From NCBI GenBank assembly GCA_016934395.1, contig JAFGSZ010000030.1, positions 4,089 through 68,088 of the forward strand: DNA of 64,000 nt. The letters are read 5' to 3'. Position 1 is the first letter of the stretch, and the number at the start of each line of letters is the position of its first letter. Positions 1-15,339 of the stretch are shown piece after piece. A program made the position numbers and the translations under genes. The stretch comes from Bacteroidales bacterium. Lineage in GTDB: Bacteria > Bacteroidota > Bacteroidia > Bacteroidales > UBA10428. Under the pieces are notes generated by a model, which saw nothing but the letters and a program-made list of their open reading frames with translations, ran no database searches and was not told where the DNA came from.

Positions 1-693
1 AAGTTCAAGGGTTGCTGTAAATTCGAGCATAATATTCTCGATATTGGCATTGAAAATACGAGAAACCGTATTTTCCCATGAACGTTCTACTTCTAATTCC
101 TCACCAGTAAGTTTTTGCTTTGTGAGTGCGTTTACATGATGTGCCTCATCGGAAATAAGAACAATTTTCTTGTCTGCAAAATCATCAAACGTTACGCTGT
201 TTTCACGGGGGGTATTTAACCGGGAATGTAAGCCCTGAATGGTTGTGAAATGAATATTAATATCATCATCGTTAACGCTTTCAAAATTATCAACTTCACG
301 AATATTAATAACCTGATTATTAATATTAATTTGTTCGGCAAATAAATATTTAAGTGAAGCTGGATTCAGAAAGTTCTCTTTTGTCTTGCGGATTATGGTA
401 TCGGTATTTACAAAGAAAATAAAATTACGATATCCCATTTTATACAATTCCACAATAGCCCCAGCCATAATTAAAGTTTTTCCGCTTCCGGTGGCCATAT
501 GAAATAATAGTTGAGTTGGTTTACGGCGGTTTTTATACTTGTTCAGGTAGAAACTTAAACGTGCAAAAGCTTCAACCTGATATGGACGGGCTTCGTAACG
601 GATATTTTGTTTAATAACATCGGGGATAACGAGTTCAATAATTTCGTTTTCTACAAGTACATCAAATTCTTTGTCTAAACGTTCTACTGCCAT
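1..693 (-). CDS. res: Type III restriction enzyme Res subunit (SF2 helicase), N-terminal part; the rest of the gene lies left of the window
   Basis: Absent from the ORF track because it is open at the window edge. My reverse translation from the ATG at 693 gives MAVERLDKEFDVLVENEIIELVIPDVIKQNIRYEARPYQVEAFARLSFYLNKYKNRRKPTQLLFHMATGSGKT (Walker A). Near 137-157 it gives ISDEAHH (DEAH box). There is a 1-nt gap to the upstream gene. Confidence 0.8.
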   Translation of the reverse strand, partial: MAVERLDKEFDVLVENEIIELVIPDVIKQNIRYEARPYQVEAFARLSFYLNKYKNRRKPTQLLFHMATGSGKTLIMAGAIVELYKMGYRNFIFFVNTDTIIRKTKENFLNPASLKYLFAEQININNQVINIREVDNFESVNDDDINIHFTTIQGLHSRLNTPRENSVTFDDFADKKIVLISDEAHHVNALTKQKLTGEELEVERSWENTVSRIFNANIENIMLEFTATLEL

Positions 694-694
694 G

Positions 695-1315
695 TTAATT
701 TATAAAGTTTTCAGATAGATGATAATACGCAGTTTTATTTGTTGGATTTTCAGATTTTGGATTATAAAGTATCTTAATATCATCACTATATACTGAAATC
801 AATCCGATATTATGTTCTTTAAAAAGGTTTACATCTACATTCCTAACAAATTCATTTGAAATTGCCAGAAAGCTTTTATGCGAAAAACATTTGTATCTCA
901 ATGCCTGATAGAAACCATCTTTCCAGTTTTTAAGTTTTGCTTCAACGGAAATTACTTTTTTCACTAATGGCTTATAGGTTTTTTCAATAACTAGATAGTT
1001 TTCTTCCTCTTTCAAATAACCTGCCTTATGTAATTTAGATAACAGTTTATTTAAAGTTTTTTTATCAAGGTTATTCTCACTTATCATGTTTGCCGGAGAA
1101 ATCCTTTTACCTTTTATGTTTATATAATTTAACAGATAGAACATCTCGTTAAAATTATTGATTGTAATATCTGGTGGATAATTATTTAAAATAGCACATG
1201 TTAAATCGCAGATGCCATTACCTGAATTGAATTCACGTTTTATTTTAAGGTCTTCGTATAATTGAGAAAAAGAATACTCAATTATAGGAAGCATATCTTT
1301 TTCAAGTTTAAACAT
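695..1315 (-). CDS. Hypothetical 206-aa protein: wHTH-like segment plus a PD-(D/E)xK-like ExK motif
   Basis: Track ORF. It overlaps the kinase gene by 8 nt and ends 1 nt before the res start. LNKLLSKLHKAGYLKEEENYLVI looks like a winged-helix recognition segment. GICDL ... ISVEAKLKNWKDGFYQALRY resembles a D...ExK nuclease core. Confidence 0.6.
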   Translation of the reverse strand: MFKLEKDMLPIIEYSFSQLYEDLKIKREFNSGNGICDLTCAILNNYPPDITINNFNEMFYLLNYINIKGKRISPANMISENNLDKKTLNKLLSKLHKAGYLKEEENYLVIEKTYKPLVKKVISVEAKLKNWKDGFYQALRYKCFSHKSFLAISNEFVRNVDVNLFKEHNIGLISVYSDDIKILYNPKSENPTNKTAYYHLSENFIN

Positions 1316-3356
1316 GACTTGTTTTATTTATTTGGTTAAAAACATTTTGCCAACGTTCAAGATGTTTATAATTATCGGGTTTAAAAACGCCGGGAATTCT
1401 TTTATAATTATTAATTGCTATCTCAATTCTTCTAAGAAAGTAATTTACTCTATCACTTTCATTTGTACTAATTATTTTTTCAACCTCACGATTAATCAAT
1501 TCCAGAAAGTGAAGTTTTGTATTATGGGAAGAAATTAAATCTGGAATGGGTTTGTCTTTACAATAAGTGCATTTGCATTGTCCTAATACTTCTATAATCT
1601 GTTGCAAACGAATGGGGTCTTTCTTTGTAATAGCTATTGTTCCCAATAATTCCGGGAAATAATACCTTTCATACATTTTAAATTGTTCAGTGACTTCTTT
1701 ATATAAATCCTCATAAAAACTCTCGAATCTTGCAGCCCCAGAAGTAAATCCTGTAATACCTGCACATAATAGACCCAAACCCAAAGTATCAAGCCTTCCT
1801 GCAATCACAGGTTTTTGAGTATATTTTTGTAAATCTACTAATGTTTTAATGTAGTGATATATTACAGGTTCAGTAGAGCTTTTATTTATTCCATCAGCAT
1901 AGATAATATATCCTTCACAGTTCATTGCCGCATAAGTATCGAGTAAATCTTTTTGGCTTTGCAAATCTGTTAATGTATTAGCATTAATACAGATTCCAGC
2001 ATAGAGAGGTTTTGAACATAGTGACTCCGTATTATTTCTATACTCAATAGATTCTTTGAGTAATTTAATATCTAAATCAAACCATTCAGCAACTGGGTTG
2101 CGTTTTGAAGTAGGGACAACATTAGTATTATGAGAATAATGATAAGGCGATGTTAGTATATCTGCCTGGAGGTTATATTGTTCATCTAAAACAAGTTTAA
2201 CATATTGCTTTTGGTCGTTATAAGAAGATAAGTAGGAGGGATTAATAACCCTGTAATCAGCAGGACAATAGGGCAATTTTAATAAACCTTTTACATCTGT
2301 ATATGTATCATAAGCTAACCGGATAGTTGAAGGGTCAAACATTAGAGTAATGTTTTCATTATCCTGTACTAATTGTAATAAACCTTTTTGCCTATATTGG
2401 TGGTTTATTGGGAAATTAACAAAAAGTTTATTCTCTGGATTATTTAGAATGAAATCTTCCAATACTGCTTTGTCATCATAAGTACGGACTATGAACCGCT
2501 TAGATAAATCAATTGTAACTTTGGAAATAGATTGACCATTACTTTTAATTGCATAAATTAAGTCATTAATACTTTGAAAACGTTTATAAGACTCTTTTTC
2601 AAGAAGTTTTAATATGATATTTTCATGTGTGTTGGAAATGTTTATATTCCACTTTCGTGGTGGAGTTGGATGCTCATTTTTTATTTTATCAATAAATTCA
2701 GGGACAATTGTTGCGTTATATGGGAAACGACCAGTAAGTAATTCATAAAAAATAAAACCTAATGTATATAAATCGCTGCGAAAATCAATGTGCTTACTAT
2801 CGGTAATTTGTTCAGGAGACATATAAGCAAATGTTCCTAAAATATTACCAGTGCTGGTGATACTAGTGTAATCAATTAGTTTTGACAAACCATAATCTAA
2901 TATTTTTATATCACCATTAGGTTTAACTTTAATGTTTTCAGGTTTTAAATCGCGGTGAATTATATTTGAATCATGAAGGCATTTAACCCCTTCAAGAATG
3001 TTAAGAAATAACTTTTCCTTATCGGAAATACTATTTTTTCTAAGACATTCCCTAAGGGTATCACCCTCAATAAAATCCATTACCAGAAAAACTTGTTGTA
3101 CATTTAAAAGGTCATCCATGAAATGTTCAACATAATCGACAAGAAATGGATGCTTAACATTTTGCATTACATCAATTTCTCTAGTAATACGGTTATCATT
3201 AGATTTTTTAAATTCGGCTAAAACATAGGCTTCACGAAAAACTTTAATGGCAAACGGTTTTGAATTTTTAAACACTTTATAAACAGAACCGAATCCACCT
3301 TCACCAATGAATTCGATAAATTTATATCCGTTAATAGTTTGGCCGATAAGTTCCAT
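1308..3356 (-). CDS. Hanks-type Ser/Thr protein kinase fused to a ~400-aa TGT/DpdA-like (CxCxxC...H) C-terminal domain
   Basis: Kinase motifs: G-loop IGEGGFGSVYKV, AIK (K38), HRDLKPEN (D136), DYG (D154), SPE. The C-terminus has C594-K-C596-T-Y-C599 (nt 1560-1577) followed by H611/H616. The start lies 6 nt after the mod stop. Confidence 0.85.
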   Translation of the reverse strand: MELIGQTINGYKFIEFIGEGGFGSVYKVFKNSKPFAIKVFREAYVLAEFKKSNDNRITREIDVMQNVKHPFLVDYVEHFMDDLLNVQQVFLVMDFIEGDTLRECLRKNSISDKEKLFLNILEGVKCLHDSNIIHRDLKPENIKVKPNGDIKILDYGLSKLIDYTSITSTGNILGTFAYMSPEQITDSKHIDFRSDLYTLGFIFYELLTGRFPYNATIVPEFIDKIKNEHPTPPRKWNINISNTHENIILKLLEKESYKRFQSINDLIYAIKSNGQSISKVTIDLSKRFIVRTYDDKAVLEDFILNNPENKLFVNFPINHQYRQKGLLQLVQDNENITLMFDPSTIRLAYDTYTDVKGLLKLPYCPADYRVINPSYLSSYNDQKQYVKLVLDEQYNLQADILTSPYHYSHNTNVVPTSKRNPVAEWFDLDIKLLKESIEYRNNTESLCSKPLYAGICINANTLTDLQSQKDLLDTYAAMNCEGYIIYADGINKSSTEPVIYHYIKTLVDLQKYTQKPVIAGRLDTLGLGLLCAGITGFTSGAARFESFYEDLYKEVTEQFKMYERYYFPELLGTIAITKKDPIRLQQIIEVLGQCKCTYCKDKPIPDLISSHNTKLHFLELINREVEKIISTNESDRVNYFLRRIEIAINNYKRIPGVFKPDNYKHLERWQNVFNQINKTSHV

Positions 3357-3362
3357 TTTATA

Positions 3363-5303
3363 TTAAAATTTGTTTAAATAAAAAGCCTTGTTCAGATATT
3401 TATCCTCCTTAGAAATTCCAAAAGTTTCATCCTCAATCTCAGAATAATTTACATATAGTTGGTTTTTGTCCAGTGTTTCAAGCAAGAATTTCTTTTGGTC
3501 GTCCGTGGAAAGTGTTTTGAAGGCTTCAATTCGTTCATCAAAAGTTTGTTTATCGAATTGATAACTTAAAAATGCCTTATCTTTCATTAACTGCCATATT
3601 GGAATTAATTTTTCTTTGTTGTCAGCTACCAGAATTTGGTCAACAAAAATTTGGTTGTATTTTGCCAGTTCGCAATAAATGAATGAGCCTCCACCTTGCC
3701 AGTTAACTTCCTTGTAATACCCACTTTCAGCACCCTTAATAGCATTAAAAATTCTTGAAACAGGAATATCTTCTATATAGTCCATTTGTTCAATACCAAT
3801 GAAGAATCTATCCAAAGAAAGTGAGACAGCAGCTGTAGTTCCACTTCCTGCAAAAAAATCTAATACAATATCATGAGGTTGTGTAGAAATCTGTATAATG
3901 TCACGAATTAAATAGGGCGATTTCGGATAACTAAATACTTTTTTGCCAAACTCATTCTTTAATTCATTTGTTCCAGTTTGTCCTGTATAATATGGCTTAT
4001 TCCAAATTGTTTTAGCTTTTTCACCTTGATAATCACTTTCTCGCTCTTTTGTGTACAATTCGATTCCATTTTTTGTTTTTTTGATTTCAATATATTTCTC
4101 AAGTTTTTCCATTAATGTAGTTGGACCCCAACGCCAACACCTTTCAGTACCTTCCTCGTCAATGGGTAATAATTCGATATCAAAAGGAGAAGTTCTTTCT
4201 AAGAAAATTTTACTTTTTTGTTCATTATAGTAAATAGGATAAAAAAGACCTGGTCTATCAGATTTTAATGAATTACTTCCGCTTCTTCTGAAACCTCTAA
4301 GTTTGTAATTACCCCATTTATCAGAGAATTTAAATTGATTCATCTTTTCATCAGATAAACCTAAGGTATTTATACTTGTACAAGTAATGTCCTTTGCATA
4401 GAAAAGCATATTTTCATGAGCTGTTGGGAAAAATTGGTCGTCTTGACGACCACCGGGATTATGCACTACTGAAATAACTCCCATTCTATTTTCTCTTCCA
4501 AAACATTCATCAAGCAAAACACCTAAATAAAACAATTCAAAATGGTCAATTGCAACAACTAAGATTCCATCTCTTTTTAATAAAGATTTGGCAATCTCAA
4601 TTCTATTTTTCATAAATGATAGCCATGCTGAATGATTGAATGTATTGTTATAGCTAAATGTGTTTGCTGCACCACTTGTATTGTAAGGTGGGTCTATATA
4701 TATTAATTTTACTATTCCAGAATACCTCTTTTTAAGTGAAGCTAAAGCTAATAAATTGTTGCCTTTGATTATTAAATTGTCATTATTTGAAATTTCAGTT
4801 ACTTCATGCTCTCCATTTAAATCATATTTCTTCCAATTTGTTAACACCTTGGGGTCAAGTAACCTGTCAATTTCATCAGGAGCGAGGGTCTCATTCCAAA
4901 AAATTTCATTTCTTTTTTGGTCTTCTTTGGTTTGTCCACCTTCTAAAACACAATCTTTGTGTGGCCATGATAGAACAACATCGTTTTTTGAAATTATATA
5001 ATTATCGGTTGTCCCATCGTTAATGGTTAATCCGATTTTGTTTTTAAATGCTGTGTAACTGTCGGGCAGAAATGATTTATTGTTTACAAAACGTTGGAAT
5101 TTAATTTTATCGAATACCAATACACCCTCTACATCTGTAAAGAAGTGCCGTTTCAAGGAATCATTTTTTAATAAATGCTTTATAAGTTTTGGGTCAACCT
5201 GTAAAGCCATCTCCACTATGCGGTTTTTATTGAGTTGACCGTCAATAACTAATGAACCTTCATGATTTAATATATCTATCAGGTCGTTTTGTAAGTTTTG
5301 CAT
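3363..5303 (-). CDS. mod: Type III R-M Mod subunit (beta-class N6-adenine/N4-cytosine DNA methyltransferase)
   Basis: Motif IV IYIDPPYNT precedes motif I DFFAGSGTTAAV, the beta-class order typical of Mod proteins. 646 aa. It heads an operon that ends with res. Confidence 0.9.
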   Translation of the reverse strand: MQNLQNDLIDILNHEGSLVIDGQLNKNRIVEMALQVDPKLIKHLLKNDSLKRHFFTDVEGVLVFDKIKFQRFVNNKSFLPDSYTAFKNKIGLTINDGTTDNYIISKNDVVLSWPHKDCVLEGGQTKEDQKRNEIFWNETLAPDEIDRLLDPKVLTNWKKYDLNGEHEVTEISNNDNLIIKGNNLLALASLKKRYSGIVKLIYIDPPYNTSGAANTFSYNNTFNHSAWLSFMKNRIEIAKSLLKRDGILVVAIDHFELFYLGVLLDECFGRENRMGVISVVHNPGGRQDDQFFPTAHENMLFYAKDITCTSINTLGLSDEKMNQFKFSDKWGNYKLRGFRRSGSNSLKSDRPGLFYPIYYNEQKSKIFLERTSPFDIELLPIDEEGTERCWRWGPTTLMEKLEKYIEIKKTKNGIELYTKERESDYQGEKAKTIWNKPYYTGQTGTNELKNEFGKKVFSYPKSPYLIRDIIQISTQPHDIVLDFFAGSGTTAAVSLSLDRFFIGIEQMDYIEDIPVSRIFNAIKGAESGYYKEVNWQGGGSFIYCELAKYNQIFVDQILVADNKEKLIPIWQLMKDKAFLSYQFDKQTFDERIEAFKTLSTDDQKKFLLETLDKNQLYVNYSEIEDETFGISKEDKYLNKAFYLNKF

Positions 5304-5599
5304 ATTATTAGTTCAATAAAAATTATTTTACAAATTAACATTTTTAGGAACAATTATCAGTTAAATGATCTAAAATCCTTGTATCGGAATATAAACAAAA
5401 CTTGCAAGACAGAAAATAAAAACTATTGCTATTAGGGTGGGCTATATAACATTTTTTCTCAAACTAAAGCAAAATAAAAAATCTCTTATTTCATGTTTAT
5501 TTTATTATTCTTATTCTTATTTTTAAAAACCACTTAATGTCTAGCTACCTAATTTATATTTATAGAATTAATAATTTCAATTTTTTTATATAATAGATT

Positions 5600-6040
5600 T
5601 TATTCTTTTTTATAAAATTCATCTCCAATCAATTCATCAGCATCAAATAAAACATCTTTAGCTTTTACAAATTTCCATAATTGATTCTTTAATGCCATTT
5701 GTAATTGTCCTTTACTATTTAAATCGGCAAATTCAAAAATTACAAATGTTCCAATTTCTTTGTAACTATGGATTTTTGCATTTTTATAGCTACGAACACT
5801 ACGTATTAGATCTTCGTTTATTTTTAAATTTTTAATTTCACCGATAAATTTAGCATTTAAACCATCTGTCTCTAGACTTTTCCAAATTGTTTGATCACCT
5901 GCATGTCTTTCATGTAATACTAATTCTTGCTCAATATTATTTACAGGATCATAGAATGTAGCCCTCCGTGAAAAATATTCGAATTTATTCTTGAAGATAT
6001 TCCCAATATCTTTAACAATTAAATAATGTTTATTTTCCAT
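5600..6040 (-). CDS. Hypothetical protein, 146 aa, no recognisable motif
   Basis: Track ORF in the AT-rich island, flanked by long non-coding spacers (5304-5599, 6041-6466). Confidence 0.5.
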   Translation of the reverse strand: MENKHYLIVKDIGNIFKNKFEYFSRRATFYDPVNNIEQELVLHERHAGDQTIWKSLETDGLNAKFIGEIKNLKINEDLIRSVRSYKNAKIHSYKEIGTFVIFEFADLNSKGQLQMALKNQLWKFVKAKDVLFDADELIGDEFYKKE

Positions 6041-6466
6041 AATAAGATAATATAATTTTTAATTGATAATTGTTATAGGTTCTAGATTCATTAATGTTGT
6101 TTAATTAGTAATAAATAAATTTAACATTTTATAACCCCTAAAACTCTATATTCAAAAATTTGTCTATTTGTTTGTTTTGTTCAAGTTTTCTAAAAAGAAT
6201 CTAATTTATTTATTTTATAGCAATTTATGTAATTTAATGTGTTCATAATTAAATGTGCTATAATGTTGAATTGTCTCATGCAAGTAAATTTATAATCTTT
6301 TATAGTCCTTTTAACTATAATGTAATTTTATTTTATCCTTGTTGCATGTTCTACCAGAATGTAAACGTGATAAGGCTAAGTTAAGATTTCTAATTGTTTT
6401 TTGAGTTGTGCAGATGGTATAATCACTCATTAAAAAAACACACGGATTAACAAAATGTGGCGAGCT

Positions 6467-7069
6467 CTATTTCCACAAAGGTTTCTTTAATGGTGTTTCA
6501 TTTAGCTTTTTTCCGAGACTATCTTTTAAATTATAGATATCTTCTTCATCTGTTGAAATAAAATAGAAATCAGAATTTTCAGAACATAATTTTTTATATT
6601 CTTTTTCTTTTTCGGCTCTCTTTTTTGAATAGTCTTCATCATCCAAACCAAAATGTTCTAAAATAATGGTGCTTCCCCTATGATCATCAATTACAAAATC
6701 AGGTCTTATTTCTTTTTCTAACGTCATTAAAGGTTCATATTGAAAATTCAATCCATTTGCCGTAAGAAAATAACAAATTAATAATTCACTTTTTGATTTA
6801 ACCTTTTGGGAATTAAAATAATATTTACCCTCAAATTTTTGTTTAAACTCGGTTTCCTTCTTCTTTTTGACATAATCAATACTTTTTAAACTCTTTTTGT
6901 GTTCCATTTTCTCTTTCCAATGTTCTTTGCAAAGCGTATGACCTTCGGGAACTTCAATGTCGCAAATTTCACATTTTGGTTTCTGTTTTTCTTTAACGGT
7001 ACAATCCCAACACAGGGGAAACCAGGGTTTTTTTGTTTTTCCACATTCGGGACATATTGTTTTATCCAT
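6467..7069 (-). CDS. Double zinc-ribbon protein with a C-terminal Vsr/DUF559-like (PD-(D/E)xK) endonuclease domain
   Basis: The N-terminus has CPECG..CWDC and CEIC..CKEH. The C-terminus has SKSELLICYFLTANGLNFQYEP...IRPDFVI...IILEHFG, the helix / (R)PDF / (I)E-x-x-G pattern of Vsr/DUF559-type nucleases. Confidence 0.55.
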   Translation of the reverse strand: MDKTICPECGKTKKPWFPLCWDCTVKEKQKPKCEICDIEVPEGHTLCKEHWKEKMEHKKSLKSIDYVKKKKETEFKQKFEGKYYFNSQKVKSKSELLICYFLTANGLNFQYEPLMTLEKEIRPDFVIDDHRGSTIILEHFGLDDEDYSKKRAEKEKEYKKLCSENSDFYFISTDEEDIYNLKDSLGKKLNETPLKKPLWK

Positions 7070-7136
7070 ATTCTTTAATTATAAAAAGTTTTTCTTTCGG
7101 CTGTTTTATCAGATATACCGCAATGTGTACAGTGTT

Positions 7137-7790
7137 TTATTCTTGTATTTTTATTAAGTCTATAAAATCATCTTCTAAATATCTTATCCGCAATGACTTT
7201 GGATGATGTGTCCTAAAGGTCAATCGTGGTAATTTTGAATGCTTTAATCTACATAATTGTCTATTGTTCCAATTGTCAATATTTTCAAAAGATATTTCGT
7301 TAAAAATTGATTTTATTCTTTGGTCAAAAGAAGGCCCTGTAAAAAAGATACAGATGTTAGGTTTTAAAATTTCAATCTCATTGATTAATAAAGAATCAAG
7401 TTTTGAAATTTCTAATTCATAGTCACCATAAGGTCTATTAGCGTCCAAATCAAACTTATTAATGTTTGTCCATACACACGAATACTCCACATTTCCTAAG
7501 GCTAATTCAATCTTTCGAGTAATATTCCAAAATGGAGATGAATAGTAATCAATCCCTAAATTGAAATCTTGATAAGTTTTCATTTGATTATCTATATCAT
7601 CTGCATGATAAGTCCAGCCATTTGTCTGTTGTCCAATAATCATTAAACGTTTTGGTTGATTTAGATATAAATCATTTGGAGACATAAGAATCGGTCCTGC
7701 CAAGTCATCATCTGGAAATCTCTCAACAATCTGTTTGAAATCATTAATCCTTGATTGGTAAATCTGTTTTAATTGCTCATTTATTGTCAT
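7137..7790 (-). CDS. Hypothetical protein with uracil-DNA-glycosylase-superfamily-like motifs
   Basis: LMIIGQQTNGW resembles UDG motif A (G-E/Q-x-P-G region). A C-terminal THHPKSL resembles motif B (HPS). The size (217 aa) fits. Assignment rests on motifs only. Confidence 0.45.
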   Translation of the reverse strand: MTINEQLKQIYQSRINDFKQIVERFPDDDLAGPILMSPNDLYLNQPKRLMIIGQQTNGWTYHADDIDNQMKTYQDFNLGIDYYSSPFWNITRKIELALGNVEYSCVWTNINKFDLDANRPYGDYELEISKLDSLLINEIEILKPNICIFFTGPSFDQRIKSIFNEISFENIDNWNNRQLCRLKHSKLPRLTFRTHHPKSLRIRYLEDDFIDLIKIQE

Positions 7791-8074
7791 AGTATCGTTT
7801 CTTTAACATGGTACACAACTAATCTATAACTTTACATTATTTTTAATAACATATACTTATAAATGTATTATGATCTCCTTTTATATGTACATGCAAAATA
7901 TTTATTATTTAATAATGTTACAATTACATAGAACAATAGTAATATCTTTTCCTTAACCCCAAATAAATGTAAATATTATCACAATATAAACCATAAATTT
8001 ATTGGAATTTTCACCTCCATGCAAATTACATTTAACTATTATAAAATATAATCCACTGGTTTTACCAATAAACT

Positions 8075-9694
8075 CTACCCCATCAAACTCCCCAAAAACT
8101 CAGGCGCTTTCCGGTGCAAGGTTGCCTGCTCAAAAGCAAACGCCAGCTTTAGCAATACAGGCTCCGACCATGCTTTTCCGAAAAAGGATATTCCTACCGG
8201 CAGACCGTGAACAAAACCTGCAGGAACCGTTATGGCCGGATACCCCGATATTGCCGCGGGCGATGAGCTGCCCCCGCCAAAATGGTCGCCGTTTACCCAG
8301 TCTATGTTCCACGCCGGGCCGTTGGTGGGGCCGATTATGGCATCGAGGTTGTGTTGTTCCGTTAGGGCATCTATACCCTTTTTCCCTGTAATTTCCAGGG
8401 CATTATTCAGTGCTTCGAGGTATTCTTCACTATCCAGGGAACCTTTCTTTTGGGCTTCTATAAAAACATCCTGACCGAACCAGGGCATTTCCAGATCGCT
8501 GTTTTTCTCATTAAAAGTTATAATTTCTTCCAGGTTTTTTACCGGGGTATTTGGCCGTTCTTCCAGGTATTTGTTTAGCCCGTGTTTAAATTCATACATC
8601 AACAGGTTTATTTCGTAGCCGCCAAGTTTTCCCATTCCTTCAAATTTTACCGGATCGATAATTTCAGCGCCTTTTGCCTTCATTGCTTCCAGGGCTTCCT
8701 CAAAAAGTTGGTCTACCAGGGGGTGAAAACCCAGAAAATCCCGGGCCACTCCAATACGGGCGCCTGCCAGTCCATTGGGGTCGAGAAATGCGGTATAATC
8801 AGTAAAAAAATTTCCTGCTGATGCTTCAGTTGAGGTATCGTTAGTATCAACCCCGGTAATCGCCCCGAGTAAAATGGCTGCATCTTTAACGGTACGGGCC
8901 ATAGGGCCGGCCGTATCCTGGGTGTGCGAAATCGGTATAATCCCCTGCCTTGACCAAAGGCCTACGGTGGGTTTAATCCCTACAATACCATTAATTCCCG
9001 AAGGACAAACAATAGAACCGTTGGTTTCTGTGCCTATAGTGAGGGTACACAGGTTTGCCGCGGTTGCAGCGCCCGAACCGGAACTTGACCCGCAGGGGGT
9101 ACGGTCGAGCATATAGGGATTTCGCACCTGGCCGCCACGTCCGCACCATCCGCTGGAGGAATAAAAAGACCGAAAATTGGCCCACTCGCTGAGGTTGGTT
9201 TTTCCAAGCAGCACAGCGCCTGCAGTGCGCAACTGTTTCACAATAAACGCATCTTCGGGAGCAATAAATCCTTCAAGGGCTAAAGAGCCTGCCGTGGTTT
9301 GCATCCGGTCGCCCGTATCGATATTGTCTTTTATCATTACCGGGATACCATGTAACGGCCCCCGGACTTTTCCGGCTTTTCGTTCTTCATCAAGTTGCCG
9401 GGCAATTTCAAGTGCATCCGGGTTGAGTTCAATTACAGCGCGGAGTGTCGGCCCGACATTGTCAATTTCTTCAATACGGTTGAGGTATTTTTTAGTAATG
9501 GCTTCAGAAGTCAGTTTACCGGAGTGCATTTTCTCCTGCAGGATATTAATGGTGGTTTCATTCAGGTCAAATGAAGAAAAATCAGCAGCAGATCCTTGCT
9601 TTTTTTTGTCAGGGGGCTGACAGGATTGTATGGGCGCCAAGGCAAATGCGCCTGCACCCAAAACGGTTGATTTAAAAAAATTGCGTCTTTTCAT
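8075..9694 (-). CDS. Amidase (amidase-signature family), Tat/Sec-exported
   Basis: GGSSSGSGAATAA amidase signature. The N-terminus MKRRNFFKSTVLGAGAFALAP is twin-arginine-like. Visibly more GC-rich than its neighbours, which explains the many antisense ORFs in the track. Confidence 0.9.
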   Translation of the reverse strand: MKRRNFFKSTVLGAGAFALAPIQSCQPPDKKKQGSAADFSSFDLNETTINILQEKMHSGKLTSEAITKKYLNRIEEIDNVGPTLRAVIELNPDALEIARQLDEERKAGKVRGPLHGIPVMIKDNIDTGDRMQTTAGSLALEGFIAPEDAFIVKQLRTAGAVLLGKTNLSEWANFRSFYSSSGWCGRGGQVRNPYMLDRTPCGSSSGSGAATAANLCTLTIGTETNGSIVCPSGINGIVGIKPTVGLWSRQGIIPISHTQDTAGPMARTVKDAAILLGAITGVDTNDTSTEASAGNFFTDYTAFLDPNGLAGARIGVARDFLGFHPLVDQLFEEALEAMKAKGAEIIDPVKFEGMGKLGGYEINLLMYEFKHGLNKYLEERPNTPVKNLEEIITFNEKNSDLEMPWFGQDVFIEAQKKGSLDSEEYLEALNNALEITGKKGIDALTEQHNLDAIIGPTNGPAWNIDWVNGDHFGGGSSSPAAISGYPAITVPAGFVHGLPVGISFFGKAWSEPVLLKLAFAFEQATLHRKAPEFLGSLMG

Positions 9695-9975
9695 ACTACA
9701 GGGAGGGTTAAATTCAGGTTGAACATAATAATTATAAAGTTGTATAAATATACAGAAATAAATTTGATGACTATTGGATTTGTAAAATGATCAGGATCAA
9801 ATAAATTGAAAAATGTCCTGATTTGCCGGATCAATAATATACAGTTTTTGTGTACTTTTAAGCTCATAATATTTATCATCATGAAACGACCATGACAATT
9901 TGTTTAACACAAACAGGAAATACTAAAATTTTGCGAGTTACTTCTGATACCGTTAAAAATTTAAAATTTAATTAG

Positions 9976-11070
9976 ATGAAACATAACTACTTTTTACTGC
10001 TTACAGGAATTTTTATTTTTGCTTTCTTCGGTAAGGTTTTTTCGCAGACAGAAGGAAGTTTACTGCAGGAAGAAATTAAAGGATTAAAAGAAAATAATGA
10101 GAATATAAACCACCGGATCGATCGTTTGGAAAAAATGGCGGACGACCTGCTTTGGTATGAAAAGGTAGGAGACATTGCTTATGTTGATAAAGCTTATATC
10201 TGCGGCCCCCCCCAATGGAAGGAAGAAAATCCCACTGCTCCCGGGGCCGGGAATCCAACTAAATTCTGGACTTATGTGTTTGTTCCGAAAAATATAAATC
10301 CGGATAAAAAATACCCGCTGATCGTGTTCCCTCATGGAGGCGTTCATGCCGATTTTACCACCTATTATACCCACATTGTGCGTGAACTGATAAGCCAGGG
10401 ATATGTGATTGTTGCAGCGGAATACAGAGGCAGTACCGGATATGGGCGGGATTTTTATGAAAAAATTGATTATGGCGGGCTGGAAACTGAAGATGTGTTT
10501 GCTTCACGGAATTATGTACTGGAGAATTATTCTTTTGCAGACCCGAAAAGGGTGGGCATAATCGGCTGGAGCCACGGAGGAATGATCACGTTGTTTAATA
10601 TATTTGATCATCCCAGCGATTACCAGTGTGCATTTGCAGGTGTTCCGGTTAGTGATATCATTTCGAGGATGGGATATATGACCCAGGATTACCGCGATTT
10701 GTATTCTGCAGATTATCATATCGGTCAAACAGCATACGAGAATGTGGAAGAATACCGGAGGCGTTCCCCGGCATGGAATACGGAAAAATTTAAGAATACC
10801 CCCTTACTGATCCATACCAATACCAATGATGAGGATGTAAATGTGCTTGAGGTGGAACATCTTATAAAATCACTCAAAGCAGACGGGAAAAAATTTGAAT
10901 ACGAAATTTTTAAAGATCAGCCCGGCGGGCATTCGTTTGACCGGCTGGATATTAAAACCGCACGGGAGATCAGGGTGAATATATACATTTTTCTTAACAG
11001 ATACCTTACACCGGAAAGCCCGATAAAAAACCTTAGTGACCTGAACAGGGCAGGATACCGGTTTAATTAA
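9976..11070 (+). CDS. S9 prolyl-oligopeptidase / alpha-beta hydrolase family serine peptidase
   Basis: Signal peptide, nucleophile elbow GWSHGG, C-terminal D...GGH catalytic context. Confidence 0.85.
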   Translation: MKHNYFLLLTGIFIFAFFGKVFSQTEGSLLQEEIKGLKENNENINHRIDRLEKMADDLLWYEKVGDIAYVDKAYICGPPQWKEENPTAPGAGNPTKFWTYVFVPKNINPDKKYPLIVFPHGGVHADFTTYYTHIVRELISQGYVIVAAEYRGSTGYGRDFYEKIDYGGLETEDVFASRNYVLENYSFADPKRVGIIGWSHGGMITLFNIFDHPSDYQCAFAGVPVSDIISRMGYMTQDYRDLYSADYHIGQTAYENVEEYRRRSPAWNTEKFKNTPLLIHTNTNDEDVNVLEVEHLIKSLKADGKKFEYEIFKDQPGGHSFDRLDIKTAREIRVNIYIFLNRYLTPESPIKNLSDLNRAGYRFN

Positions 11071-11097
11071 ATATTCAACAGGTAAAAACCAGCAGTT

Positions 11098-11436
11098 TTA
11101 TTCGATAATTTTTACCGATCTCAGTTCTGCTGGTGTTATCGAAGGCAATTGATTATTTTGAATTTTATGAATAACCATTTTACCCACTTTTCTTGCTGAA
11201 CTTTTATCTGTAAATGGTATATTACCCTGAATGGCCGGTATGAATGGCTGATGGATGAGAATATTGTTGTTTTTTACTATTTGATAGCCATATCCATTGT
11301 CTGAAGGAAAAACCTGTAGCCCATAACTCAACCTACTGCTAACAAGAAAAGGCTTTGTGTGATAGGCTACAGAGAATAATACTGAAAATCCAACCCCTGC
11401 AAAAAATAACAGATATTTCTTATTAATCATATTCAT
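11098..11436 (-). CDS. Small secreted protein (DUF4907-like)
   Basis: The track ORF begins at 11508, inside the upstream gene. I prefer the internal start MNMINKKYLLFFAGVGFSVLFSV (signal peptide) at 11436. Lying downstream of a Kelch lipoprotein is typical for this family. Confidence 0.5.
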   Translation of the reverse strand: MNMINKKYLLFFAGVGFSVLFSVAYHTKPFLVSSRLSYGLQVFPSDNGYGYQIVKNNNILIHQPFIPAIQGNIPFTDKSSARKVGKMVIHKIQNNQLPSITPAELRSVKIIE

Positions 11437-12433
11437 TGTATTCGCTGTCGGGTTCAAAGGCCCAAATATCATCGAAATAATAGCTGCTGCTCCGGCCTGT
11501 AGTAACATATCCTCTGGTGCCTATTGAAAATCCAACACCTTCAATGCGGGCGCTGCCTTCAAAATTATGTTTTTCCTCCCATAAATCCGTAATCGGATCA
11601 TATTCCCATACTTCAATTCCGGTTGCACCTGCACCTCCGGTGGCGAGGTATCCTTTTCCGTTTATAGCAAAACCGACTTTATTTATACCGACAATCGTAG
11701 AATAATCATTATCAAAATCTTCATCTGTGGCATTTGATATAGATTTTTTTTCTGTCCAAACATCGGTATCAGGATCATATTCCCAGAAATCGTCTATATA
11801 TATTCCATTATTTACCCCCGTGCATGCATATCCCAAGCCATTTATTACAAAGGCAGTGGCATCCCTTCTTTTGCTACCGCCAATACTGACTTTCTGATTC
11901 CAGTCTTTGGTGGAGGGATTATACGCCCAGAAATCTTTCAGGTAATTGCCGTCATATCCCGAACCCACATATACAATATTGTTAATTGAAAAGCAAAGGG
12001 CACCGTATCGTGCTGATCCGGCAAAATCTGTTATCTGTATCCAGGTATTGGCAGAGGGATTAAATTCATAAAAATCACCTAATTTATTAATTCCGTCATA
12101 ACCTGTACCAATATAGCCTTTTGTGTCGGTTCCGCACCCTATGGCGCCATTTCGCGGTACACCCGGAAAATCAGCTTTCTGGGTCCATGTATTTCGGTCA
12201 GGATCGTATTCCCAAAAGTCATTAAGTCTTTCGGTCCCGTCATAACCAGTACCTACATATCCCTTACTTCCAATAGCAAATCCAACGGCATCGTTTCTGG
12301 GAACACCATCAAAATCTGACAGTTCTATCCAGTTACCTGATAATTCATCATCATCATCATTGTCACTACAGGATAAAAACATACCTGAAATACCTAAAAA
12401 AACTACAAGATATTTTAATTTATAAATTGCCAT
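11423..12433 (-). CDS. Kelch-repeat beta-propeller lipoprotein
   Basis: About six repeats of GY.GTGYDG....DFWEYDP. I prefer the start at MAIYKLKYLVVFLGISGMFLSCSD (lipobox Cys), 42 nt inside the track ORF. Confidence 0.8.
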   Translation of the reverse strand: MAIYKLKYLVVFLGISGMFLSCSDNDDDDELSGNWIELSDFDGVPRNDAVGFAIGSKGYVGTGYDGTERLNDFWEYDPDRNTWTQKADFPGVPRNGAIGCGTDTKGYIGTGYDGINKLGDFYEFNPSANTWIQITDFAGSARYGALCFSINNIVYVGSGYDGNYLKDFWAYNPSTKDWNQKVSIGGSKRRDATAFVINGLGYACTGVNNGIYIDDFWEYDPDTDVWTEKKSISNATDEDFDNDYSTIVGINKVGFAINGKGYLATGGAGATGIEVWEYDPITDLWEEKHNFEGSARIEGVGFSIGTRGYVTTGRSSSYYFDDIWAFEPDSEYNEYD

Positions 12434-12718
12434 TTTGTATCTGTTTAAAATTGGAATTTTTAAAATACTCGCCAAACATACTGATTAGCGTATTGGAACA
12501 AAAATGAAATAGATATACTCAGGATAAGATTCGACAAACTGGATGATGTAATCGACATGATGGTTTAATGATACTAAATAATGGATTTCAGAGTCCTTTA
12601 AACAGGTTATATAGATTTATTGTCTGAATGTCGACACATTTTGGTGATTGGTATACTTGAGTTTTCCAGGTTAAAAAGATTCTGTTGATTTGCCGGATAA
12701 TAATTTACCAGAATCCGA

Positions 12719-14095
12719 ATGAAAAAACACATTCCAACTAGATTTATTTATACTTTTTTAAAGTATAAAATTATATTTTCATTCTGTTCGGCTGTTATAT
12801 TTTTTACAGGGCTGATAATAATACAATCGTGCGGAGAACAGGAAAATACATTTACAATCGGTTCAACTTTTCTGGAACAAAACTCCAGGGTAGTATTAAT
12901 AGATACATTCCGGGTTGAGCTATCCACTGTTCAGTTCGACTCCATTGCTACTTCAGGTACAGGCGTTGCTTTATGCGGAAGGTATTCGGATAATGAATTT
13001 GGGATTATTGAATGTAAAAGTTTTTTTCAAATCGGAATACCCTCAAGCAGCATTATTGAAAATAATGAGGTGTATGATTCTGTTACTATTATGCTGACAT
13101 TTTCCGGGTATACTTATGGTGATACTATTCCGAATCAAAAAATACAGGTGCATCAGTTAACAGAGAATATTGTTGCAGACAATTCCGGTTACCTGTATAA
13201 TACCTCCTCAGTTGATTATAAAGAAGAGCCAATTGGATTTACAGTCTTTAAACCATGGGTAAATATTTATGAAAGTATTGAATTTAGAATTGATGATAAT
13301 TTGGGACTGGAGTTGTTTGAAATGCTTAAATACAATGCCAGTCAGGTATCTTCAAATGAAGCATTTACAGAATATTTTAAAGGTTTGGTGATTACCACAG
13401 ATGAAAATGATCATGGTGTAATTGTAGGTTTTAATGCAGGTGAAGGGGCGATAAGTTTAACGTTATATTCACATATTGTAAAAGAAAATCTGATAGAAAA
13501 CAGTTACGATTTTACATTATATAATTATTATCAGCAATTCAATCAGATTAATTACGACAGGTCCGGCACCCTTTTAAGCGATTTAACTGTGCAGGACGAT
13601 GACATCCCCTCCATAGAAACAGAGGATAAAACGTTTATTCAGAGCGGTACAGGATTAGTTACCAAAATCCAGTTTCCGACACTTGGAGAGTTTCTATTAA
13701 TGGAAAATAGTGCTATGCTCAAAGCTGAATTGGTTATTGCTCCGGTAATAAATAATTATACAAGATCTATATTGCCCGATAGTGTGATAATTATTCGTAC
13801 GGATATAATAAACAGGACACTTAGCCAGCTATATAATAATGAAGGAGAGAAAGTAACCGGAAAATTTATTCAGGATGATCAGTATAACGAACAAACGAGC
13901 TATACTTTTGATATTACAGATTTTTTGCAGGCAGAATTAAAGGATTCATATTTCGATTATTCTAAGGGTTTACTTCTGGCTTTTCCTGAAAATACATTCA
14001 TCTCTAAGTTGAACACATTAATAATTGAATCGGATTCGAAAGAATTTAATGCTCCCCGGTTAAAAATTCAGGTTCTTGTATATGATGAAGAATAA
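12719..14095 (+). CDS. Hypothetical lipoprotein (DUF4270-like)
   Basis: Signal anchor with IIQSCGEQ lipobox, 458 aa. The family assignment is from memory of Bacteroidota DUF4270 proteins and is not verified. Confidence 0.55.
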   Translation: MKKHIPTRFIYTFLKYKIIFSFCSAVIFFTGLIIIQSCGEQENTFTIGSTFLEQNSRVVLIDTFRVELSTVQFDSIATSGTGVALCGRYSDNEFGIIECKSFFQIGIPSSSIIENNEVYDSVTIMLTFSGYTYGDTIPNQKIQVHQLTENIVADNSGYLYNTSSVDYKEEPIGFTVFKPWVNIYESIEFRIDDNLGLELFEMLKYNASQVSSNEAFTEYFKGLVITTDENDHGVIVGFNAGEGAISLTLYSHIVKENLIENSYDFTLYNYYQQFNQINYDRSGTLLSDLTVQDDDIPSIETEDKTFIQSGTGLVTKIQFPTLGEFLLMENSAMLKAELVIAPVINNYTRSILPDSVIIIRTDIINRTLSQLYNNEGEKVTGKFIQDDQYNEQTSYTFDITDFLQAELKDSYFDYSKGLLLAFPENTFISKLNTLIIESDSKEFNAPRLKIQVLVYDEE

Positions 14096-14106
14096 ACTAT
14101 GAAACT

Positions 14107-15339
14107 ATGAAACTAAAATATTTAATTGTACTGTTTTTATCCGCTATTTCTTATACTCTTTATTCTCAGATAACAAGCTCACCCTATTCCATTTTTGGTA
14201 TTGGAAACATCGAGACCGGAGGATTTGGAGCTAATGCAGCTATGGGGGGGACAGGCATAGCCTTTAAGAGTTCAGGTTCTTTAAATAATCTAAATCCTGC
14301 ATCATATGGTGGAATAGACAGTTTATCGGTTTTTTTTGAACTGGGGATTTTCGGGAAAACTACAATATATAAAACAGCAACTGAATCACAAAACAGGTTT
14401 GATGCCAACTTAAAATATCTGGCTGCCGGATTTAGAGTAACACGTTGGTGGGCCGGGAGTTTTGGTATCATCCCTTTTAGCAGTGTAGGGTATTCTATTA
14501 ATACCACCAACATCTACGAGGGAACAATATATTCCTTTGAAAGACAATATACCGGAAAGGGGGGAATCAATAAATTTTACATAGGGAATTCGTTAAAACC
14601 ATTTAAGAATTTTTTCATGGGTTTTCACGCATCATACCTTTTCGGTTCTATTATCAACAATGAAATTGTGGATGCCACAGAAAACATTAATGCCTATAAG
14701 ATAACACAAACACAATATTTAAATAATTTTTACCTGGATTATGGAATACAATATCAATTTAATCTTGGGAAACTAAACTACGGGATAGGTCTAACTTATA
14801 GTAACCAAAGAAAATTAAAGACCGATAATATAGTGGAAGTAGCTTTTGGAATAGATACTATTTCTATTGAGCCCGAAAATTTCAAGACTTTTTTTCTCCC
14901 GGAAAGTTACGGGATTGGAATTTCTGTGGAAAAGGAGAACAGGTTTAGGGTGGGACTGGATTACACATTCAGCAGATGGTCGGCAATGAGTTTTTCAAAT
15001 CCCCTTTTAGAGGTAAAAGATAATGAAAGAATTTCTGTTGGTATGGAATATACACCGCGTCAACGACGCAATGAAACCGGCATTAAGGCTTTGTATTACA
15101 GGATTGGAGGATTTTATAATTCATCGTATCTTGAGATTGAAAATCAACCGATCGATTCAAAGGCTATTACATTTGGCCTGGGTATCCCTTTAAGGCAGGA
15201 TTTAAGTATGATAAATCTGTCTTTTGAGCTGGGAGATCTTGGTACCACACAAAAAGGACTAATAAGGGAATTTTACGGACTGTTACATGTAAATATTACC
15301 TTACGCGACTTATGGTTTATGAAAAGGAAAATTAAATAA
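14107..15339 (+). CDS. Outer-membrane beta-barrel protein (porin/FadL-like)
   Basis: Signal peptide, mature N-terminus SPYSIFGIGN, alternating aromatic/Gly-rich strands, and a C-terminal aromatic-containing strand. Confidence 0.6.
   Translation: MKLKYLIVLFLSAISYTLYSQITSSPYSIFGIGNIETGGFGANAAMGGTGIAFKSSGSLNNLNPASYGGIDSLSVFFELGIFGKTTIYKTATESQNRFDANLKYLAAGFRVTRWWAGSFGIIPFSSVGYSINTTNIYEGTIYSFERQYTGKGGINKFYIGNSLKPFKNFFMGFHASYLFGSIINNEIVDATENINAYKITQTQYLNNFYLDYGIQYQFNLGKLNYGIGLTYSNQRKLKTDNIVEVAFGIDTISIEPENFKTFFLPESYGIGISVEKENRFRVGLDYTFSRWSAMSFSNPLLEVKDNERISVGMEYTPRQRRNETGIKALYYRIGGFYNSSYLEIENQPIDSKAITFGLGIPLRQDLSMINLSFELGDLGTTQKGLIREFYGLLHVNITLRDLWFMKRKIK

Follow-up and report, generated by a model that had tools for sequence, protein, structure and literature searches.

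The window analyzed here is a stretch of 64,000 nt from a Bacteroidales bacterium (GenBank assembly GCA_016934395.1, contig JAFGSZ010000030.1, positions 4,089 to 68,088 of the forward strand), and our subject is the group of four minus-strand genes at its start, in which two genes lie between mod and res of a Type III restriction-modification (R-M) system. A first-pass annotation of this DNA had taken the four genes together for a phosphorylation-gated and/or base-modifying derivative of Type III restriction. Comparison with related loci gives a different architecture, that of a Type III carrier with an autonomous two-gene cargo, and this cargo is probably a separate anti-phage system. The genes, as defined by the list of open reading frames (ORFs), are as follows:

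5303..3363, minus strand: mod, encoding the Type III methyltransferase Mod (646 aa), the upstream gene of the carrier (ORF list, Pfam, PADLOC)
3356..1308, minus strand: cargo gene 1, encoding a 682-aa fusion of a kinase and a predicted β/α-barrel–zinc domain (ORF list, Pfam Pkinase)
1315..695, minus strand: cargo gene 2, encoding a 206-aa PD-(D/E)xK-like protein with a winged helix-turn-helix (wHTH) (ORF list, structure model)
693..1, minus strand: the N-terminal part of res, 231 codons, open to the window edge (ORF list, Pfam, PADLOC)

The ORF list agrees with the first-pass annotation on gene order, coordinates, and junctions. The mod gene and the kinase fusion are 6 nt apart, the fusion and the 206-aa gene overlap by 8 nt, and 1 nt separates the 206-aa gene from res; this tight, co-oriented packing, also as originally described, is compatible with one operon. 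The canonical direct adjacency of mod and res is absent, the two genes being separated by 2.67 kb that hold the two cargo genes.

Mod matched N6_N4_Mtase (PF01555, 7.8e-38) and TypeIII_RM_meth (PF12564, 9.7e-26) in Pfam and MTase_III (1.3e-165) in PADLOC, and the catalytic motifs IDPPYNT and DFFAGSGTT are readable in its translation. The Res fragment in the window matched ResIII (4.7e-31, Pfam) and REase_III (3.5e-48, PADLOC) and bears motif I (GSGKT) and motif II (DEAH); the full-length protein, present on an overlapping public contig (L093), has 863 aa and the domains ResIII, HI_1054_N, and HI_1054. Judged by these matches and motifs, Mod and Res apparently form an intact Type III R-M system that acts as the carrier. 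No phase-variation repeats were found in mod. An assembly chimera was considered and rejected, as the same layout occurs in the independent assemblies L093 and L006.

The mod–res junction as a cargo slot

Loci of close Res relatives were compared, including eight whose Res proteins are 94 to 99.8% identical to each other (L006 and L094-L100). Across these eight near-identical carriers, the junction between mod and res was found in five states:

L094 and L095: empty (6 nt from mod to res)
L096: a gene for a 1014-aa Ppl-like PHP/ATPase
L097, L098, and L100: PDC-M11A and PDC-M11B, a PIN-domain gene and an ASCH-domain gene (E = 1e-210)
L099: a gene for a Type IIG-like methyltransferase–nuclease and a 212-aa gene
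L006: the kinase pair

Every cargo was co-oriented with its carrier and lay precisely in the interval from the mod stop codon to the res ATG, with junctions of 1 to 24 nt. The carriers with an empty slot (L094 and L095) and the carrier of the Ppl-like gene (L096) are ~99% identical in Mod and ~98.5% identical in Res, and it is the cargo that differs. Mod was otherwise mosaic, at 56 to 99% identity, and did not track the cargo, the window Mod being 84% identical to that of L099, which carries a different one. This Type III lineage has a cargo slot where mod meets res, either empty or occupied by known or candidate defense systems. The cargo lacked any housekeeping family assignment in Pfam and NCBIfam. 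The first-pass annotation had not recognized the layout as a described system, and in this it was borne out: the literature searched yielded no account of a cargo slot at the mod–res junction, and the pair of kinase/barrel–zinc fusion and wHTH-nuclease-like protein matched no HEC or PDC model (PADLOC-DB v2.0.0).

The window carrier is more distant from these eight, its Res and Mod being 80% and 62% identical, respectively, to those of L006. Between the same two loci the kinase pair is 76% and 65% identical, a divergence similar to that of the carrier (Res 20% diverged). No terminal repeats, target-site duplications, or recombinase or transposase genes were found with the window cargo, and a transposon-like insertion was rejected on the lack of repeats and recombinase. 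From the sequences compared, the simplest inference is that slot contents are exchanged by homologous recombination via the conserved flanks.

Two further observations concern individual slots. The 212-aa partner of the Type IIG-like cargo (L099, 5320-5958) had no Pfam or PADLOC match. At L006 (5386-7971), codon 335 of res is an in-frame stop while the cargo is intact, a state that reflects either carrier decay or a sequencing error in a metagenome-assembled genome.

Autonomy and distribution of the two-gene pair

Individual gene neighborhoods and a set of 80 loci from species-representative genomes, taken with flanks of 6 to 10 kb on each side, were screened with the four window proteins by tblastn. 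A homologue of the 206-aa protein directly adjoined the gene for the kinase fusion, with its characteristic C-terminal domain (C-domain), in essentially every locus with enough flank. At ~60 of ~62 loci, spread over >10 phyla, the pair occurred without a similar mod or res in the fetched flanks; L006 alone among the screened loci had a similar mod and res beside it, in a repeat of the four-gene layout. Phyla with the pair include Bacteroidota, Ignavibacteriota, Calditrichota, Chlorobiota, CPR/Patescibacteria, Bacillota, Proteobacteria, and Planctomycetota, and its patchy distribution across them looks like horizontal transfer. When the C-terminal 404 aa of the fusion were used as query, at least 353 clusters at 90% identity were recovered, and nearly all of the 120 listed were ~680 aa in length with the kinase attached. 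The 206-aa protein forms a conserved family of its own, found on contigs whose lengths match those of the kinase-fusion family.

The relative orientation of the two genes varied. In CPR genomes (L061-63, L067, L068, L073, and L076) the pair is convergent with overlapping 3′ ends, and the same arrangement occurs on a mobilizable plasmid of Priestia megaterium (L114, NZ_CP140272.1, 5999-8668; hhalign 99.8%). Because the pair stays together when convergent, its pairing is independent of co-transcription.

The window C-domain was also searched with phmmer against 1.84 billion cluster representatives, using direct HMMER scoring without a word index, and stand-alone C-domain proteins of about 390 to 410 aa were recovered. 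In a prophage (L103, 2553-4432), a kinase-less pair was found in reversed order with a 4-nt overlap, located between holin/endolysin (lysis) genes and a serine recombinase (integrase), and its partner gene clearly encodes a homologue of the 206-aa protein (hhalign 99.5%, E = 2.5e-23). Next to this prophage pair lie a gene for an 80-aa wHTH protein and one that is YolD-like. Since a kinase-less pair exists, the conserved core comprises the wHTH/PD-(D/E)xK-like protein and the C-domain protein, and the kinase is an addition to the N terminus of the barrel protein in one large branch that includes the window. Scans of viral contigs for fused and stand-alone barrel proteins gave no relatives, with sensitivity limited by the search patterns; 50,697 phage records gave no match, and a single plasmid match was obtained.

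The two inner genes are therefore an autonomous, widespread pair, and because the pair is not syntenic with a similar mod and res at ~60 of ~62 loci, keeps its pairing elsewhere, and sits in a slot of variable cargo, the layout is one of a carrier with an embedded independent module. This bears directly on the dedicated four-gene system of the first-pass annotation, a phosphorylation-gated and/or base-modifying Type III enzyme that would have the kinase fusion and the wHTH/ExK protein as built-in subunits or as regulators. Tight co-oriented packing would fit such an enzyme, and the repetition of the layout at L006, at the Mod and Res identities given above, indicates that it has been maintained for some time. 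However, synteny of the four genes in other genomes, a check that the first-pass annotation had itself set out, was confined to L006, with ~60 loci holding the pair away from any similar mod or res in the fetched flanks. The same junction was empty or filled with unrelated cargos in carriers 94 to 99.8% identical, a kinase-less pair resides in a prophage, and the cargo of L006 is intact beside a res with an internal stop. We consider a dedicated four-gene system highly improbable.

At several loci, neighboring genes were of the defense type. AbiEii, DUF6088, and Fic occur near the pair at L002; HEPN, BrxC/D, Lhr, and Wadjet at L004; and a Type II R-M system at L006. The closest relative of the window pair (79% identity; L091, 447-7587, and L092) is followed by HEC-01A/B (an AAA_15/21 ATPase and DUF4276) and, at L091, by a Type III Res that belongs to another family (PDLC03647, with RE_endonuc), with no mod before the contig end.

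An architecture of this kind has precedents. Payne, Hughes, Fineran & Jackson described defense systems nested in Hma, BREX, DISARM, and Type I R-M carriers, with 96.7% of embedded systems co-oriented with the carrier, and proposed that a single embedded instance is ground for defense candidacy (bioRxiv 10.1101/2024.01.29.577857). The PDC and HEC models of PADLOC originate from that study, and Type III carriers were outside its survey (bioRxiv 10.1101/2024.01.29.577857). Like those systems, the window cargo is nested in a multigene system, co-oriented with it, and mostly nonembedded elsewhere, and its slot-mates include PDC-M11, itself a product of that approach. Unlike the published cases, the carrier here is a Type III mod–res operon.

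The closest analogy for a coupled cargo is PrrC, which was found almost exclusively embedded in Type I R-M systems (bioRxiv 10.1101/2024.01.29.577857). In the Type Ic R-M locus EcoprrI, the anticodon nuclease PrrC is an extra effector inside an R-M operon and a second line of defense behind restriction, as the pair would be. By this precedent, the pair could be an independent module held latent by, or monitoring, the Type III enzyme, and would be set off by a phage anti-restriction protein that disables that enzyme. Of the family members examined, the three closest (those of the window, L006, and L091) all adjoin Res-type genes, the Res of L091 being of a different family. Three cases in one small subclade may simply reflect shared ancestry. 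Whereas PrrC is nearly always embedded and physically coupled to its R-M enzyme, the pair is nearly always free-standing, the great majority of its family being nonembedded, and the two families are unrelated. A guard of this type is quite unlikely. Functional cross-talk between the pair and Type III restriction in this lineage is possible, and nothing requires it.

Domains of the two cargo proteins

Four features were delineated within the cargo proteins:

2574..3326, minus strand: kinase domain, aa 11-261 of the fusion (Pkinase, 1.1e-50, Pfam)
1311..2510, minus strand: C-domain, aa ~283-682 of the fusion, with alternating β/α units, a zinc subdomain, and a helical tail (predicted structure)
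1509..1577, minus strand: putative zinc site C594-x-C596-xx-C599 … H616 (invariant residues)
986..1153, minus strand: wHTH insert, aa ~55-110 of the 206-aa protein (model, fold matches)

The first-pass annotation had described an intact Hanks-type kinase, and the 682-aa fusion does contain the Gly-rich loop, VAIK Lys, HRD loop, DFG-type Mg loop, and APE-type motif (GEGGFGSVY at aa 18-26, K38, HRDLKPEN at 134-141, DYG at 154-156, and SPE at 180-182). Residues K38, D136, N141, D154, G156, P181, and E182 were invariant among 37 homologues, and with the full-length model the closest structures to this domain in Foldseek were PknB, PknA, and Stk1. With its catalytic residues invariant, the domain is likely an active Hanks-type Ser/Thr kinase.

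Kinases of known defense systems are related to the fusion through this domain. In PADLOC, the fusion gave kinase-only matches to PD-T4-6 (1e-62), Stk2 (3e-26), and also MAD6, ending at ~aa 280 of 682. The PD-T4-6 models also match housekeeping PASTA-type or ordinary Hanks kinases (PMC11514479). The single-gene defenses Stk2 and PD-T4-6 have a Hanks kinase in common with the fusion, but neither has a barrel–zinc domain or an obligatory nuclease-like partner. PglW of BREX type 2 comprises a NERD-REase, a kinase, wHTH modules, and a sensor (PMC12839542). PglW and the NERD-REase–kinase subset of DndF have the same parts as the pair: a PD-(D/E)xK-type nuclease, an active Ser/Thr kinase, one or more wHTH modules, and a separate putative sensor. 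In the pair, however, these parts are split over two genes, and the putative sensor is the barrel–zinc domain in place of the inactive STAND ATPase of PglW. The NCBIfam PglW model NF033442 scored 54 bits on the window fusion against a cutoff of 990, and no PglX, PglZ, BrxC, or other BREX genes were found flanking the pair in the window. Membership of PD-T4-6, Stk2, MAD6, or PglW was rejected, since the kinase domain alone matches. Automated annotation would probably mislabel 1308-3356 as PD-T4-6.

For the 206-aa protein, the AlphaFold model was confident (pLDDT 96) and the wHTH claimed in the first-pass annotation was evident at the position given above, where it matched MarR/GntR/IclR-type wHTH domains in Foldseek, with weak MarR_2 and HTH profile matches. 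The wHTH sits between β2 and β3 of a predicted αβββαβ core (H5-19, E23-30, E35-43, the wHTH, E118-127, H131-143, E147-153). Residues E28, D37, E125-x-K127 (the ExK motif of the first-pass annotation), and Q137 do not vary across the family. By motif and topology, the protein is a putative PD-(D/E)xK-like nuclease interrupted by the wHTH; the best matches to its core were insignificant (3dnx, E = 5e-3, and NERD, 0.04, for the prophage homologue).

The C-domain matched no family in Pfam, NCBIfam, PADLOC, or PHROG. Neither its single sequence nor a 28-sequence profile matched PDB sequences or Pfam; stand-alone homologues had no Pfam or PADLOC annotation, and the three proteins compared with PHROG, namely the window C-domain and two of its stand-alone homologues, matched nothing there. 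In the structure predicted for the C-domain (pLDDT 84), eight alternating β/α units, with D341, D488, and R521 invariant at strand ends, are followed by the CxCxxC…H cluster and then by a helical tail. C594, C596, C599, and H616 were invariant in the 37 homologues and in 28 C-domains, and with stand-alone forms included C594, C599, and H616 (C316, C321, and H338 in C-domain numbering) were at least 90% conserved.

In the tRNA-guanine transglycosylase (TGT) superfamily, including DpdA and archaeosine TGT (ArcTGT), a β/α barrel precedes a CxCxxC…H zinc subdomain, an order also predicted for the C-domain. With a 41-sequence C-domain profile that included stand-alone forms, the best PDB sequence match was ArcTGT 1iq8, a weak one (E = 0.29), in which the alignment falls on the zinc site and the CxCxxC…H segment of 1iq8 matches the cysteines and His of the C-domain. 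Against a six-sequence bacterial TGT profile, hhalign gave 57% probability (P = 1.1e-4, score 40.5) over 178 co-linear columns, and all 62 controls scored below 40.5 (two reversed, 13.7 and 15.9; 60 shuffled, maximum 25.6). This alignment pairs KPVIAGR with DKPRYLMGVG and ends on CxCxxC, and it places E549, the Glu of FESF that is invariant in 28 mainly kinase-fused C-domains, on the nucleophilic Asp of TGTs in FDCV. D341 is invariant in the kinase-fused branch. Against a single E. coli TGT sequence, hhalign was insignificant (0.4% and 7%), and viral contigs, as a source of diverse TGTs, yielded near-identical sequences only.

On this basis, the barrel–zinc domain is probably a very divergent TGT/DpdA-like fold, an assignment that is moderately supported. 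It differs from known TGTs in its extreme divergence, the lack of a Pfam TGT match, its fusion to a kinase, and its pairing with a nuclease-like gene. The base-modifying element of the first-pass annotation survives to this extent, in that the C-domain is plausibly TGT/DpdA-like, whereas a dedicated four-gene, phosphorylation-gated derivative of Type III restriction is not supported.

A TGT-like domain invites a further alternative, namely that the pair itself works either as a minimal R-M-like system based on base exchange or as a modification-dependent system. In one version, a TGT/DpdA-like enzyme would replace or excise a DNA base, either marking self or reading hypermodified phage DNA, and the wHTH-nuclease would cut the other state. 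The kinase would be a regulatory addition. The zinc site and the alignment of an invariant Glu with the catalytic Asp of TGTs are in keeping with such chemistry, as is the obligatory nuclease-like partner. GmrSD/BrxU-like modification-dependent nucleases are, moreover, frequent embedded cargos that complement methylation-based carriers (bioRxiv 10.1101/2024.01.29.577857). However, no 7-deazaguanine-synthesis, DpdB, or DpdC Pfam families were found among the called neighbors of the pair in annotated contexts, and both the only moderate TGT homology and the limited conservation of the putative catalytic acids, taken up below, speak against it. We regard this alternative as unlikely.

Island context and proposed function

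The four genes lie in a low-GC island (GC 0.23 to 0.35, compared with >0.38 in the flanks) that ends at ~7900, where GC climbs from ~0.25-0.30 to >0.38, and that reaches 9 kb or more beyond the window edge (L093, 1-15049). Three small ORFs of the island lie upstream of mod:

5600-6040, minus strand: small ORF, no convincing family match
6467-7069, minus strand: small ORF of 200 aa, resembling the PDC-S68/S69 candidates (PADLOC)
7137-7790, minus strand: small ORF, no convincing family match

The second of these encodes a Cys-rich N terminus (four CxxC motifs) and a C-terminal domain that matches PDC-S68 (1.4e-14), PDC-S69, and HEAT_CxxC_PD-DEXK, and is probably another small defense candidate. 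On the overlapping contig L093, ~5.5 kb beyond res, a protein with TIR and HATPase_c_2 domains is encoded (13489-14775; bSEFIR/ThsB-like, 5.9e-19), and a PAS/GAF histidine-kinase-like gene has weak similarity to PDC-M43B. Together, these two genes suggest that the island holds further defense genes. No tRNA genes were found in window positions 1-14000.

Our favored explanation, to which we assign a probability of about 0.7, is that the locus is a Type III R-M carrier with an embedded, self-contained two-gene cargo that is a separate anti-phage system. The architecture of carrier and autonomous cargo is shown by the loci compared. That the cargo is an independent anti-phage module is probable because of its slot-mates, its neighbors in defense islands (AbiE, HEPN, BrxC/D–Lhr, Wadjet, HEC-01, and TIR), its carriage by a prophage and a plasmid, and its patchy distribution.

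Several results weigh against this explanation or parts of it. The defense role of the pair rests on genomic context, and stand-alone copies occur among housekeeping genes at L001 and L010. Promoter and terminator scans at the locus gave only chance-level signal. As the divergence of the pair from its L006 counterpart is similar to that of the carrier, the composite mod–pair–res has persisted, which is compatible with some functional coupling. The putative nuclease core of the 206-aa protein has no significant database family or structure match of its own. Foldseek, a check proposed in the first-pass annotation, recovered the wHTH of the 206-aa protein, but with the full-length fusion model against PDB and BFVD it gave kinase matches only, among the matches listed, and was uninformative on the barrel fold. 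The TGT relatedness of the C-domain is moderate (57%), and neither E549 nor D341 reaches 90% conservation across the broad family.

The copies at L001 and L010, together with the MarR-like wHTH of the 206-aa protein, would also fit a nondefense role, in which, for example, a signaling kinase plus DNA-binding regulator, a module for DNA repair, or a selfish addiction cassette landed by chance between mod and res. Yet the slot otherwise holds defense-type cargos only, the pair recurs in defense islands, in the accessory region of a prophage, and on a plasmid, its cross-phylum spread is patchy in a manner resembling horizontal transfer, and the cargo comes without terminal repeats or a recombinase. 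A nondefense role is very unlikely.

Under the favored explanation of an embedded anti-phage module, a mechanism can be sketched tentatively. The barrel–zinc domain might recognize or process some feature of the invading nucleic acid or of its bases, and the wHTH-nuclease could conceivably be a DNA-targeting effector. By analogy with Stk2, the fused kinase may add a phosphorylation output of the abortive-infection type, or else it could gate the nuclease. Embedding might give co-expression with, and a back-up layer behind, Type III restriction, the mechanism of which would be unchanged. A bolder proposal, and a doubtful one taken as a whole, is that the barrel–zinc domain works on DNA or tRNA bases as a TGT/DpdA-type enzyme or reader, that with the wHTH-nuclease (and here the kinase) it constitutes a new, widespread immunity mechanism acting by base exchange, excision, or sensing of hypermodified bases, and that the mod–res junction is a general, unsurveyed cargo hotspot.

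The embedding phenomenon is already known; what is new is Type III as a carrier type, together with an undescribed candidate cargo. Tight packing inside an R-M operon does not make the inner genes part of the enzyme, and five slot states among carriers with Res proteins 94 to 99.8% identical provide a clean natural experiment that extends guilt by embedding to Type III carriers. A survey of mod–res spacers may be a cheap route to new defense genes. The cargo itself is an uncharacterized module present in hundreds of genomes from >10 phyla, as well as on a plasmid and in a prophage, and if its TGT-like domain does act on nucleic-acid bases, base-exchange chemistry would be joined with phosphorylation and nuclease activity in one form of immunity.

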